The notes below the pieces were generated by a model. It was not told the DNA's origin. It saw only the letters and a program-made list of their open reading frames with translations, and made no database searches. From NCBI GenBank assembly GCA_963747735.1, contig CAVVGE010000009.1, forward strand, positions 6,257 through 70,256: 64,000 nucleotides of DNA. Reading direction: 5' to 3'. A program made the position numbers and the translations under genes. How positions within the stretch are numbered: position 1 is the stretch's first letter; the number at the start of each line of letters is the position of its first letter. Positions 11,149 through 34,916 of the stretch are shown here, in pieces. Source of the stretch: an uncultured Alphaproteobacteria bacterium (GTDB lineage: Bacteria; Pseudomonadota; Alphaproteobacteria; ATCC43930; CGMCC-115725).

Positions 11149-12684
11149 TCACGGCACCGTGAAGCGATCGTTCATCGAGGTCCAGAACTGCTGCTGCACG
11201 ACCTTGCCGCGGCGCAGGATGTCGCCGTGAAAGGCGAGCAGCACTTCGAGGACATCGCCGTGGGCCACCCCATGAAAGGTGGCGCGCGGCCGGTCAAAGC
11301 CGATAAAATGACAACCCGTCGCCTGGTTGGCCACCGTTCCCGCCGCGTCGGTGAAATAGCCGTTGAGCGGGCCGTCGGGCGGCGCCGGGCCTTCATTGCC
11401 CTGTGCGCGATGGCCATAATTCACCGCCGTTGCATCGGCGGCGTTGCCGTCTTCCTGGAAGGCGTCGTTGATCCGGCCCGCGGGTAGGTTTCCGAATTCC
11501 GCGCCGAGATCGGTGACGACGCCGCCCCGGGTGCGCCGCTTGTGACCGCGGATGAACTGCCGATATTCGTAGTCGGCGCACCCGCAATACTGTGAAAACT
11601 GGGCGTGCATCGTGTGATGGCCGGCGACCGGCCGCTCGCCCGCGGCGACCGGACCCGGCACCGCATTATCGAGGCCGACGTTGAAAGCCAGAAGGCAGTT
11701 CTCGTCGGTCATGGCCAAGCCTTCCGCCCGCGTCTCCCGGTCGAGAAAATTGAAAGTCTGCGGGCCGATCATGCCGTCCTTGTGCAGGCCGAATTCTTCC
11801 TGCAACGAGGCAACGGCCAGGATGTCGTCGTCGGTCCAGGTCCCGGTCGGCTCGGTGCCGATCAGGTCCTGCAGCTGCTTGGTTCGCGCTTCGTCATAGG
11901 TGAATTTGTTGAAACGGATCGCGGCCTGGATTTGCGCCGGGGTCAAATCCGTCTGGGCTGCCGCCGCCGGAGTGGGCGGCTCGGTGGCGAGGTCGCGCCG
12001 CACCGTGTTTCCGGGTGCCGGCCGCTGCTGGACGACGTGCGCCAATTCGTGGGCCAGCAAGAAGCGCCCGCCGGCGGCGCCGGGCGAGAATTCACCCGAC
12101 CCGAAGACGACGTCGGCGCCGATCGTGAAAGCCCGCGCGTTGAGGTCGCGCGCCAGCGCTCCCGCCTCGGCATCGGCATGCACCCGCACATCGCCAAAGT
12201 CGTGCCCAAAGCGGGGCTCGAAAAACCCTCGTTCGGAGGTCGGCAAATTCGCGCCGTTGCCGAGATTGCCGATGCGCTGCTCGAGCCCCGCCGTGATCGC
12301 GGGCGGCGGCCCCAACAGCTTACCGTCGATCTCTTCGTCGGCCCGCTTGCGGCGAACCTTCGCCTCGTCATCGGCTTGGCACGCGGCGCAGGCGCGCTGA
12401 AGCATCCCCGATGCGGCCGTCAAAGCGTGAGGCGGCTCAGGGCTCGACGCCGGCATCCGCATGACCGCTTCGGCCATCGCGTCGGCTTCGCGCTCGAGCG
12501 GGTCGGCCGCGGAGCCGACAACGAGCTTGCACTGCAATGCCGCCGGCGCGACCGCTATCCTGGAAAAGTCGTGCGCGGCAAAAGCGGGTGCCGCCGGCGC
12601 CGCCGTCTGCCGCACCGCCGCGGTGAAAGCGCCCGGCGGCAGCGCAGCGCGCTTTGTCGGCGAGACCGCAACATGGGCCTGCAT
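11149..12684 (-). CDS. eCIS cargo candidate: DUF4157 (HExxH) domain + peptidoglycan-binding-like domain + unknown C-terminal domain
   Basis: FEPRFGHDFGDVRVHADAEAGALARDLNARAFTIGADVVFGSGEF...RFLLAHELAHVVQQ is the DUF4157 signature. LQEEFGLHKDGMIGPQTFNFL is PG_binding_1-like. The last 200 aa or so are unassignable. The start was chosen at the ATG preceded by AAGGAGGG, 11 nt after the upstream stop. Confidence 0.85.
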   Translation of the reverse strand: MQAHVAVSPTKRAALPPGAFTAAVRQTAAPAAPAFAAHDFSRIAVAPAALQCKLVVGSAADPLEREADAMAEAVMRMPASSPEPPHALTAASGMLQRACAACQADDEAKVRRKRADEEIDGKLLGPPPAITAGLEQRIGNLGNGANLPTSERGFFEPRFGHDFGDVRVHADAEAGALARDLNARAFTIGADVVFGSGEFSPGAAGGRFLLAHELAHVVQQRPAPGNTVRRDLATEPPTPAAAAQTDLTPAQIQAAIRFNKFTYDEARTKQLQDLIGTEPTGTWTDDDILAVASLQEEFGLHKDGMIGPQTFNFLDRETRAEGLAMTDENCLLAFNVGLDNAVPGPVAAGERPVAGHHTMHAQFSQYCGCADYEYRQFIRGHKRRTRGGVVTDLGAEFGNLPAGRINDAFQEDGNAADATAVNYGHRAQGNEGPAPPDGPLNGYFTDAAGTVANQATGCHFIGFDRPRATFHGVAHGDVLEVLLAFHGDILRRGKVVQQQFWTSMNDRFTVP

Positions 12685-12695
12685 TTCACCCTCCT

Positions 12696-13601
12696 TCAGC
12701 CGCTCGGACTCTCCTGCGAGTACCGGATGCAGCGGCGATAATATTCCGGCCAATCGCGGCGCACCCGGTCCGCCAGCCGGCGCATGATGTCTGGCGCCCG
12801 TTTCGAATACGCCATCAGATGGGTGTAGCCAAGTTTTGCCGCCTGGTTCGGATTGCGCGCCTCGTCCCAGGAGCAGAACAGGTATTCGCAGCGCACCCCG
12901 CGATACGGCGAGCCCGGATCAAAGCGATGGAAGCCGAGGCATGCCGACAGCAGGAATTGCTCGACAACATAAGTGAAGCGCCATTTTTCCGGATGGCGGG
13001 CCCAGCCGGCGGCATTTTCCGGCCGCTCGACCAGCGCCAGCGCGGTTTGCGCATAATGGCGCAGAAACGCGATGTCCCGGCCGCCGAGAATGCCGCAATT
13101 TTCGGCGCTGAGCGTCGGCCCGCGTGACCGCGCCCACTGCCATTCCACCGGAACGATGCCGCCGGTGTCGGCAAACGACTCTTCGACATCCTGCGGGCAA
13201 TAGATCCGCTGCTCCGGACCATAATGTTCCGGATGCTGGGCGAGCACCGGCGCGGTTTCGAGGCGCGCCGGCAGCGCCTTCCACAAAAAAGCATCCGAAT
13301 CGATGTGCACAAACGGCCGGTCCTGCATGGCGTAGGCGACGAGCTTTCCCAGCATCCACCAGCCGGGGTCGTGCCGGCGCAACCGGTCGAGCTCGGTCGA
13401 TACCTCGACAAAGGGCAGCGCCAATCGATCGACGAGCAGCTTCGCTCCGAACGTGTCGGTGACCAGCATCGTGTCCGGGTAGTGGCGCGCGGCGCTCAAC
13501 ACCGACGCCACCCAGGCGAGCGCGTGGTTCAGCGGCGTGCCCCAGACACCCGCGTAATGGGCGCGAAACGGCTCGCTCCAGAACGACCACACCGCGCGCA
13601 T
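12696..13601 (-). CDS. hypothetical protein in the eCIS operon (DxD-like HIDSDAF motif; possible glycosyltransferase-like fold)
   Basis: 301-aa ORF with non-repetitive composition (W/F/Y/H-rich), 21 nt downstream of the fibre-like gene. It contains MQDRPFVHIDSDAFLW. Confidence 0.65.
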   Translation of the reverse strand: MRAVWSFWSEPFRAHYAGVWGTPLNHALAWVASVLSAARHYPDTMLVTDTFGAKLLVDRLALPFVEVSTELDRLRRHDPGWWMLGKLVAYAMQDRPFVHIDSDAFLWKALPARLETAPVLAQHPEHYGPEQRIYCPQDVEESFADTGGIVPVEWQWARSRGPTLSAENCGILGGRDIAFLRHYAQTALALVERPENAAGWARHPEKWRFTYVVEQFLLSACLGFHRFDPGSPYRGVRCEYLFCSWDEARNPNQAAKLGYTHLMAYSKRAPDIMRRLADRVRRDWPEYYRRCIRYSQESPSG

Positions 13602-34530: not shown

Positions 34531-34565
34531 GGCGGTTCCTTTCGCGACAAATTACCGGCGGCGCA

Positions 34566-34916
34566 TCATTGCGGACCCGGTCCCGCATGCAGCGCGGCGT
34601 TCAGCGCATCGGCCGACAGCTCGGCCAAAGGCAGCGAGTAAACCCGCAATTCGTGCAGGCAGCCGCGCTCGCCGCCAACCCCGATCGCCACGACCTTCAG
34701 CATCGCAAACTCGCGCAGCAGCGGCTCGAAGTCGGCGGCGCGGTCGGGCTCGAGCGCCGGCATCATAACCACGTCGGCCCGTGCAGACCGGATCTGCAGG
34801 TTGAGCTCGTTTTCGCCATCGACGCGGCCAGCGACAACCATGTCGGGGAACGCAGCCAACGCGCCGGTGACGATGGTGGCGAGCAAATTTGACATTCCGC
34901 AGAGCAGGATGCGCAA
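34566..34916 (-). CDS. small receiver-like (pseudo-receiver) protein, first gene of the eCIS operon
   Basis: A TTG start lies 11 nt after AGGAGG. MRILLCGMSNLLATIVTGALAAFPDMVVAGRV...ADVVMMPALEPD resembles a CheY-like fold, but no Asp follows the beta-3 strand. It stops 35 nt upstream of the sheath start. Confidence 0.5.
   Translation of the reverse strand: MRILLCGMSNLLATIVTGALAAFPDMVVAGRVDGENELNLQIRSARADVVMMPALEPDRAADFEPLLREFAMLKVVAIGVGGERGCLHELRVYSLPLAELSADALNAALHAGPGPQ

Follow-up and report, generated by a model that had tools for sequence, protein, structure and literature searches.

The 64-kb window analysed here, a stretch of contig CAVVGE010000009.1 from an uncultured soil alphaproteobacterium (a Stellaceae/Acetobacteraceae-like metagenome-assembled genome), carries an operon that very probably encodes a stand-alone contractile injection system (CIS) of the extracellular CIS (eCIS) superfamily, belonging to lineage II and having the gene content of dbeCIS subtype IIa. 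Its 20 genes, all co-oriented on the minus strand, include those for a sheath and a gp19 tube, a cap, an ATPase, the baseplate core (gp25, J, gp27/gp5 and PAAR proteins) and a DUF4157 protein, with no head or type VI secretion system (T6SS) genes in the window. An earlier sequence-only reading of this DNA had named three hallmarks, a Pvc16_N cap, an AAA+ ATPase and a DUF4157 protein, and we recovered all three. It had also set the locus apart from prophage tails, pyocins and T6SS, a distinction that is upheld by the hallmark trio, by the lack of head and packaging genes and by a sheath that is at most 34% identical to any phage sheath. Its attribution to the Afp/PVC/MAC type of eCIS stands for the superfamily and has to be revised for the lineage, the locus being a lineage II system, IIa-like by gene content, and not a member of the Afp/PVC/MAC lineage.

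Assignment to lineage II and comparison with known systems

The GC content of the window is ~66% and raw lists of open reading frames (ORFs) are noisy as a result. Coding frames were chosen by third-position GC (GC3) profiling, and Pfam scans were run on the GC3-supported ORFs across the 64 kb. In these scans, as the earlier reading had stated, no capsid, portal, terminase, phage integrase or Tss genes were found. Head and packaging genes are lacking within the 11 kb to the left and the 29 kb to the right of the operon, and none of the scanned ORFs matches the TssB/TssC, TssJLM or ClpV families of T6SS. Profile hidden Markov model searches, which that reading had suggested as a check, directly matched the sheath, gp19, Pvc16_N, AAA, Phage_base_V, gp25, Baseplate_J and eCIS_core families.

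In the dbeCIS classification (Chen et al., PMC6899500), two afp11 copies are found in subtypes IIa and IIc only, separate gp27 and gp5 ORFs replace a contiguous afp8 in IIa, IIb and IIc, and PAAR (afp10) is absent only from IIb. Divergent afp12 and afp13 are kept in IIa and IIb and absent from most IIc and IId, and lineage II generally lacks afp14 and afp6 (PMC6899500). The window possesses two afp11 genes, both matching TIGR02243 ("putative baseplate assembly protein"), a split afp8 in which a 377-aa hub is followed by a 168-aa Phage_base_V protein, and a PAAR-like tip. As regards afp12 and afp13, the DUF6519 fibre is clear and the Afp12-like assignment of a 767-aa protein comes from weak Tail_P2_I matches in 3 of 14 homologues. 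The window departs from the IId (Streptomyces) pattern in having two afp11 genes, afp8 in two parts and a fibre, and its cluster encodes no transmembrane protein. This gene content thus fits subtype IIa.

The only characterised IIa system is the CIS of Halogeometricum borinquense (9EZM). Like the window, it has two Cis11/Afp11 J genes and an Afp8 split into gp27 and gp5, and both loci possess PAAR, Cis12/13-like peripheral proteins (the Cis12-like one being a candidate in the window), a Cis15 ATPase and a Cis16 cap, with no recognisable Afp14 or Afp6. They differ in that the host is here bacterial and not archaeal, and in that the window carries one contiguous operon instead of two subclusters with a spacer. 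Furthermore, the window has no homologue of the six-helix membrane anchor, nor any other transmembrane protein, and the genes at its 3' end encode a DUF6519 fibre, a DUF6734 protein and a DUF4157 protein.

Among solved structures, the sheath is closest to that of the cytoplasmic CIS of Streptomyces coelicolor/venezuelae (IId; 8BKY, 8BL4, 9GTP), with an E-value of 9e-69 for 8bky, followed by the haloarchaeal 9ezm (2e-62) and then by Pvc2 and Afp2, to which the similarity is limited to the C-terminal ~200 residues. The second J protein matches Streptomyces CIS chain 9gtp_1K (2e-9). Both the Streptomyces systems and the window belong to lineage II, with an ATPase and a cap and no typical Afp14, but a single afp11, a contiguous afp8, the absence of a fibre, transmembrane effectors and a need for the membrane protein CisA are Streptomyces features that the window does not share.

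Lineage I systems (Afp/PVC/MAC) likewise lack head genes and have a sheath, a gp19 tube, gp25, a baseplate J protein, a spike, PAAR, a DUF4255 cap and an AAA+ ATPase, and their 3' end carries toxin genes. In contrast to them, the window has its cap and ATPase genes in the middle of the operon, directly after the tube module, and a single sheath gene instead of three. Its Afp8 is split, its Afp11 is duplicated and its fibre is of the DUF6519 type and not adenovirus-like.

Gene map of the operon

GC3 frame analysis gave an unbroken minus-strand coding chain from 34916 down to 11149 (Table 1). The sequence-only reading had counted 21 genes; the supernumerary one, ORF 21104-21643 (179 aa), is the out-of-frame C-terminus of the baseplate-J gene starting at 23576. 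The same reading had claimed at least nine overlapping junctions and, once start codons were placed against upstream stops, exactly nine were found to have 4- or 8-nt start/stop overlaps, the 4-nt ones being ATGA/GTGA. They lie between the Zn-ribbon and P/A-rich genes, P/A-rich and cap, cap and ATPase (GTGA), ATPase and g08 (ATGA), tube-like and LysM-like, LysM-like and hub (8 nt), gp25 and the first J gene (J1), J1 and the second J gene (J2), and J2 and the gene for the 767-aa protein. These nine junctions are translationally coupled.

Two ORFs were discarded in the course of this work. ORF 31248-31631 (frame 0, 127 aa), considered as an overlapping gene or as a sign of a programmed frameshift, is Arg/Cys-rich junk, and the real product at this place is the conserved 249-aa Zn-ribbon protein in frame 1. 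ORF 29193-31211 (672 aa), considered as a single Pvc16 gene with a P/A-rich N-terminus, was replaced by two genes in different frames, a P/A-rich gene and a Pvc16_N gene that starts at ATG 30449. In public gene calls on a near-identical contig, the P/A-rich gene is wrongly merged into a 671-aa Pvc16 ORF. The corrected map, including this P/A-rich gene, is a useful yield of the analysis.

Table 1. Coordinates of the operon genes, in order of transcription, and of two neighbouring features
Feature	Position	Strand	Evidence
g01, 116 aa, first operon gene	34566..34916	-	GC3-supported ORF
Sheath (Cis2/Afp2-like), 668 aa	32524..34530	-	Phage_sheath_1C 6e-11 (sheath C-terminal domain)
Inner tube (Cis1/gp19), 172 aa	31971..32489	-	Phage_T4_gp19 9e-44; TIGR02241 4.6e-44
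g04, Zn-ribbon protein, 249 aa, lineage-specific	31204..31953	-	Conserved Cys; frame 1
g05, P/A-rich protein, 253 aa, tape-measure candidate	30446..31207	-	ATGA overlap at each end
Tail terminator/cap (Cis16/Afp16), 418 aa, C-terminal IPT/TIG	29193..30449	-	Pvc16_N 3.1e-40; TIG 1e-4
AAA+ ATPase (Cis15/Afp15), 644 aa	27262..29196	-	AAA 7.8e-25; winged-helix variant (WHD) 1.3e-16
g08, 101 aa	26960..27265	-	GC3 frame; ATGA overlap
Tube-family adaptor/initiator (Cis5-like), 217 aa	26302..26955	-	CIS_tube via homologues
LysM-like baseplate protein (Afp7/gp53-like), 127 aa	25922..26305	-	PHROG baseplate wedge 2.4e-5; weak gp53 and LysM
gp27/gpD-like hub (N-terminal half of split Afp8/VgrG), 377 aa	24796..25929	-	Homologue profile
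gp5/gpV-like spike (C-terminal half of split Afp8), 168 aa	24274..24780	-	Phage_base_V 1.5e-20
PAAR-like spike tip, 105 aa	23943..24260	-	DUF4280/PAAR_motif via homologues
gp25-like baseplate wedge (Cis9), 121 aa	23573..23938	-	GPW_gp25 3.6e-15
First baseplate-J/gp6-like gene (Cis11a-like), ~820 aa if intact, frameshifted	21104..23576	-	TIGR02243 7e-59
Second baseplate-J/gp6-like gene (Cis11b-like), 925 aa	18330..21107	-	Baseplate_J 1e-9; TIGR02243 2.5e-71
g17, baseplate periphery protein, 767 aa, Afp12/gpI-like candidate	16030..18333	-	Conserved position in all loci
Tail fibre with DUF6519 (eBAP5) baseplate-anchor domain, 794 aa	13623..16007	-	DUF6519 3e-54
DUF6734 protein, 301 aa, predicted GT-A (GT8-like) glycosyltransferase	12696..13601	-	DUF6734 5.8e-54
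DUF4157 cargo candidate, 511 aa, last operon gene	11149..12684	-	eCIS_core 1.3e-29; HELAH at residue 212
LuxR/GerE-family response regulator	10316..11104	+	GerE 1.4e-14; Response_reg 4e-4, below cutoff
Insertion sequence (IS)-remnant cluster, 1.3 kb upstream of operon	36189..40080	.	IS1595 DDE twice; DDE_3 fragment; IS3-type rve/HTH_21

Structural genes

In the tube and cap module, the inner tube has sub-threshold matches to the CIS1/CIS5 families, and the alignment of the cap to Pvc16_N (DUF4255) spans profile positions 3-179 of 180. The Zn-ribbon protein of the sequence-only reading has four Cys (C76, C79, C186 and C189) that are invariant in 20 homologues; its family matches are weak, to T4_baseplate/gp51 (0.0017) and a PHROG baseplate hub. 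The frame retained for g05 has full-length homology in more than 10 loci, whereas the alternative frame has none beyond DNA-level relatives. Profile searches gave no family match for g05, which we consider as a candidate tape measure. They gave none either for g08, whose homologues, 32-91% identical, occupy the equivalent position in nine loci (L001-L009). Finally, g01 has no Pfam, NCBIfam or PHROG match even at E<=1; homologues ~50% identical are found just upstream of the sheath gene in three loci only (L023, L091 and L093).

The weak assignments, those of the 217-, 105-, 377- and 767-aa proteins, were tested through positional homologues from related loci. The tube initiator, the PAAR-like tip and the gpD-like hub of the sequence-only reading were all recovered in this way. 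Indeed, 18 of 23 homologues of the 217-aa protein match Pfam CIS_tube (best 7e-7), the window copy being just under threshold. DUF4280 is matched by 14/17 homologues of the 105-aa tip (best 1.6e-6) and PAAR_motif by 4/17, with the window copy at 0.002 for DUF4280, under cutoff. A profile of 24 homologues of the 377-aa hub matches the N-terminal gp27-like part of VgrG chain 9rce_F, from a solved CIS baseplate (2.7e-6); its VgrG_rel match is weak and, as a single sequence, the hub has no significant match in a PDB search. The gpI-like wedge of the same reading was recovered only faintly: g17 keeps its position in all loci, but Tail_P2_I and Mu Gp48 are matched weakly (~1e-4) by just 3 of its 14 homologues and not by the window copy, and no PDB sequence match was obtained. 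PDB sequence and profile searches with the Zn-ribbon, DUF6734 and DUF4157 proteins likewise gave nothing significant. The predicted fibre-like protein was identified by its DUF6519 domain, defined as the eCIS fibre baseplate anchor eBAP5 in a 2026 catalogue (PMC12923769).

A frameshift recorded in the first baseplate-J gene

The Cis11a-like gene is interrupted in the window by a +1-nt frameshift at 21669/21670. Homologues of ~820 aa align over just the first 81% of the 781-aa ORF and, in tblastn, intact homologues match the window with residues 1-636 at 23576-21669 and residues 636-823 in another frame at 21670-21107. As the intact homologues continue across the frame change, the 179-aa "gene" is the displaced C-terminus of this protein. 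Compared with L002, a locus of 91% identity, the window carries a single additional base within GGGATCCGCC. A programmed ribosomal frameshift at 21669 was rejected as unlikely: it would require a shift of +1, neither a slippery site nor a nearby stop is present, and intact relatives are unshifted.

Two side observations concern indels in closely related sequences. Locus L002 (10001-12470, metagenome-assembled genome MFD00031.bin.1.178) has a frameshift of its own near residue 125 of the same Cis11a-like gene, with a public product of 662 aa. In a 99.7%-identical sister assembly (ERZ25039497; L101, 1-979), an indel fuses the ATPase gene and g08 into a 746-aa product. Indel differences thus exist among near-identical assemblies of the source organism.

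The strain as recorded may make no functional particle, and the locus could be a recently inactivated remnant in which a real frameshift abolishes baseplate assembly. We regard this as a serious possibility without favouring it. The 781-aa product recurs in two further assemblies from different samples (99.5% and 99.9% identical in this protein), and seven short-read contigs, ~20 kb in total and many of them overlapping one stretch, have 0 indels relative to the window, so that, wherever a check is possible, the assembly is as a rule accurate for indels. The lack of any sign of programmed frameshifting, the different lesion of L002 in the same gene, and the IS remnants and other split genes of the window point in the same direction. 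Nevertheless, the three assemblies are long contigs, to which a systematic consensus error at a GGGATCC motif could be common, and the nearest short-read contig (L103) stops 21 nt short of the site, giving no independent confirmation; the ATPase/g08 fusion attests to indel noise in the data set. Moreover, an inactivation would have to be very recent, given that the remaining 19 genes are all intact and in tight coupling.

Candidate cargo and accessory genes

The sequence-only reading had left the cargo without a name. It can be narrowed to two candidates, the 511-aa DUF4157 protein and the DUF6734 protein, both proposed from sequence and structural models. DUF4157 is an eCIS core marker that is in most cases found fused to a toxin, or next to one, at the 3' end (Geller et al., PMC8213781), and the cargo of AlgoCIS consists of a disordered N-terminal loading sequence, followed by DUF4157 and then by an effector domain, with AAA+-dependent loading (2026 preprint). 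In a confident model of the 511-aa protein, residues 1-55 and 77-117 are disordered and DUF4157 (120-220) is followed by a helical peptidoglycan-binding-like region (249-320) and a beta-sandwich (332-509, pLDDT >90); of the 54 homologues of its C-terminal region, 44 carry a DUF4157 (PF13699) annotation. The predicted protein thus resembles Cgo1 and Cgo2 of Algoriphagus machipongonensis AlgoCIS, in which a disordered N-terminus precedes an HExxH-bearing DUF4157 domain, with a folded domain at the C-terminus. It differs from them by its peptidoglycan-binding-like module and beta-sandwich, and N-terminal regions are not conserved between systems; its loading is proposed by analogy. We infer that this protein is the best cargo candidate. 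Its peptidoglycan-binding-like module, together with a YkuD domain found in the DUF4157 protein at the equivalent position of another locus, hints weakly at a cell-wall target.

The DUF6734 protein was modelled with a pLDDT of 95.3 and has no disordered N-terminus. All 23 Foldseek matches at E<=0.001 are GT-A enzymes, and the top ones (E ~1e-4, probability 1.0, TM-score 0.45-0.55) are retaining GT-A enzymes: glycogenin, the UGGT catalytic domain, LgtC and a xylosyltransferase. Residues D101-x-D103 and H261 are invariant. We thus predict a GT-A Rossmann-like fold with a DxD metal/nucleotide-sugar site, the structural similarity being moderate (TM-score ~0.5). As in GT8 retaining glycosyltransferases (glycogenin, LgtC, the UGGT catalytic domain), the predicted GT-A fold has an invariant DxD at 101-103 and a later invariant His, but the identity to these enzymes is only 10-14% and no sequence match to any solved structure was obtained.

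DUF6734 stands directly after the fibre gene in 9 of 11 proteobacterial loci (L001, L002, L004, L005 and L007-L011), the other two (L003 and L006) ending earlier. In five further contexts it is found directly after the fibre gene (3/5), with one gene between (1/5) or away from CIS genes (1/5). One homologue, 56% identical (L099, 6001-6894), has no recognisable CIS genes around it, and the family is thus not strictly CIS-bound. DUF6734 is not mentioned in any paper of the literature searched. The protein could be a second effector, delivered as a glycosylating toxin, or it could modify the fibre or particle enzymatically. Very tentatively, it might be a GT8-like glycosyltransferase that forms a quasi-core component of a widespread IIa-like bacterial branch, placed between the fibre and DUF4157 genes in nearly every sampled locus, and that either glycosylates the fibre or particle or acts as a conserved glycosylating toxin devoid of the usual disordered loading sequence; we consider this combined proposal rather unlikely as it stands. 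If true, glycosylation of the fibre or particle by DUF6734 would be a step of maturation for which no CIS precedent has been described.

The LuxR/GerE gene is convergent with the operon at its 3' end. GerE regulators are associated with eCIS operons (Geller et al., PMC8213781), and they also flank seven related loci (L049-L051, L063, L089, L096 and L097). This neighbouring GerE-type response regulator is a likely candidate for regulating the operon.

Proposed mode of action

The order of assembly, the loading of cargo and the release of the particle are proposed here by analogy with the solved Afp, PVC, AlgoCIS, tCIS and Streptomyces CIS particles. The baseplate would form around the gp27-like hub, the gpV-like spike and the PAAR-like tip, with gp25, the two gp6/J-like proteins, the 767-aa peripheral protein and the LysM-like protein as further parts. 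The gp19 tube would polymerise from the CIS_tube-family adaptor as its seed, and the P/A-rich protein might serve as the ruler along which it grows. The sheath would assemble around the tube in its extended state, and the Pvc16_N protein would cap it. The AAA+ ATPase would load cargo into the tube lumen via a disordered N-terminal loading sequence, the 511-aa DUF4157 protein being the best candidate, and the DUF6734 protein might be loaded as well or act on the fibre or particle. Binding of the DUF6519 fibre to a target would be followed by sheath contraction, driving the spike and tube through the target envelope.

We mildly favour an extracellular mode of action, because the cluster encodes no plausible transmembrane helix and does encode a large DUF6519 fibre. 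The same machine could instead stay in its producer. It might be anchored in the cytoplasmic membrane and fire outward on contact, like a T6SS and like the haloarchaeal IIa system, or else lie free in the cytoplasm and bring about cell death under stress, which is the Streptomyces mode. Its two best solved sheath relatives are of these kinds: the Streptomyces CIS is cytoplasmic and devoid of a fibre (PMC10066040), and that of Halogeometricum, the sole characterised IIa member, is bound to the cytoplasmic membrane and T6SS-like, a mode that correlates with a six-helix membrane protein (PMC11566945). Since these characterised lineage II relatives act inside or on the producer, the extracellular mode is here an assumption, lineage II relatives being known for three other modes, and the ORFs scanned include no holin or endolysin. 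However, the haloarchaeal mode correlates with a six-helix anchor and that of Streptomyces depends on CisA, a membrane protein, and the cluster encodes no transmembrane protein. It also has the large DUF6519/eBAP5 fibre gene that Streptomyces lacks, and the layout of its cargo candidate is the one shown for lumen-loaded cargo of AlgoCIS, which is extracellular. Altogether, we consider retention in the producer rather unlikely.

Several points weigh against the main reading, that of a IIa-like system of the eCIS superfamily. The machine is known here from its genes alone, and its subtype was assigned by gene content and not by phylogeny with reference sets. Any roles of g01, g04, g08 and g17 in the machine are putative, as is the tape-measure role of g05. 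For the C-terminal beta-sandwich of the 511-aa protein, Foldseek gave weak beta-sandwich matches only, none of them significant, and no enzymatic assignment follows from them. The first baseplate-J gene is frameshifted as recorded, and the characterised lineage II systems nearest by sheath sequence are not extracellular. Finally, the cluster has neither lysis/release genes nor a membrane anchor.

Relatives and distribution

A protein search with the J-type protein returned more than 7,700 relatives. The gene order from sheath to fibre is identical in loci spanning the cluster in uncultured Alphaproteobacteria (Stellaceae, Acetobacteraceae), Paraburkholderia unamae CATux-332 and another Paraburkholderia, and is also kept in such loci of Streptosporangiaceae, other Actinomycetota, Gemmatimonadota and Chloroflexota. 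The sheath was found in 76 metagenome loci, at 37-87% identity. Related sheaths are carried by replicons of Rhizobium, Ensifer and Cupriavidus, those on Rhizobium and Ensifer megaplasmids being 44-50% identical. The megaplasmid pSA1 of Novosphingobium resinovorum SA1 harbours a related locus with the same order and a sheath 52-54% identical. On this 1.76-Mb replicon (L112), an insertion of ~9 kb at 27295-36168, including a DUF4157-like gene, lies between the ATPase and the tube-like gene; in the pSA1 locus, cargo-type genes may thus sit in the middle of the operon.

Such loci have already been catalogued computationally by the thousands, including in cultured Alpha- and Betaproteobacteria, and a literature search for a characterised alphaproteobacterial eCIS returned nothing relevant. 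As a catalogue entry the locus adds little; the comparative work provides a gene map, cultured relatives and two cargo or accessory candidates. Lineage II CIS are abundant in soil bacteria and barely studied, and clade IIa has one characterised member, which is archaeal. P. unamae CATux-332, with the same gene order, and N. resinovorum SA1, with its related locus, are cultured potential models for a bacterial IIa-type system. Together with the cargo candidates, these cultured relatives make the question of target and delivery testable.

Genomic context

A defective myovirus prophage or R-type tailocin is highly improbable and, within the limits of the window, effectively excluded. The sheath, tube, gp25, gpV and baseplate-J families are common to contractile phage tails and IS/transposase genes lie nearby, but the locus has the Pvc16_N cap, the AAA+ ATPase, DUF4157 and the DUF6519 fibre anchor. 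No lysis cassette, no tRNA attachment site and no gene for a head, portal, terminase or phage integrase was found in the 64 kb. Identity to the best phage sheath is 34%, over 62% of the protein, compared with 53-97% to the sheaths of syntenic CIS loci, and the GC content of the cluster is not distinct from that of its flanks.

The eCIS operon is bordered on the left by the convergent LuxR/GerE gene and ordinary metabolic genes and on the right by a 1.3-kb gap, an IS-remnant patch of ~4 kb and then metabolic genes. Between g01 and the IS patch (34917-36188, 1.27 kb), we found no GC3-supported ORF, sigma-70-like promoter match or Rfam match; scans for tRNA, Rfam families, promoters and terminators gave no tRNA or Rfam match in the 64 kb and nothing informative. 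The same arrangement of IS remnants is present in locus L019. In locus L023, an IS240/IS6-type transposase lies ~420 nt upstream of the g01 homologue, and IS activity by such loci may recur.

Other genes of the window appear to be split. At 51399-53596, a glycogen-debranching-type gene is found as a 110-aa ORF with GDE_N_bis (53264-53596) and a 609-aa GDE_C/MGH1-like ORF (51399-53228), in different frames and 35 nt apart, and looks like a second frameshifted gene. Within 45983-50276, a 297-aa ORF with just the C-terminal GMC-oxidoreductase domain lies beside a full GMC gene, and a thiamine pyrophosphate (TPP)-enzyme occurs as an N+M part (329 aa) and a C part (236 aa) in one frame with a stop between; these fragments could be pseudogenes or natural two-subunit forms. 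Finally, the SMP-30/gluconolactonase (SGL) gene at 43201-44103 covers profile positions 81-245 only and is represented by two fragments in the sister contig L019 (405-1311); it may also be disrupted.

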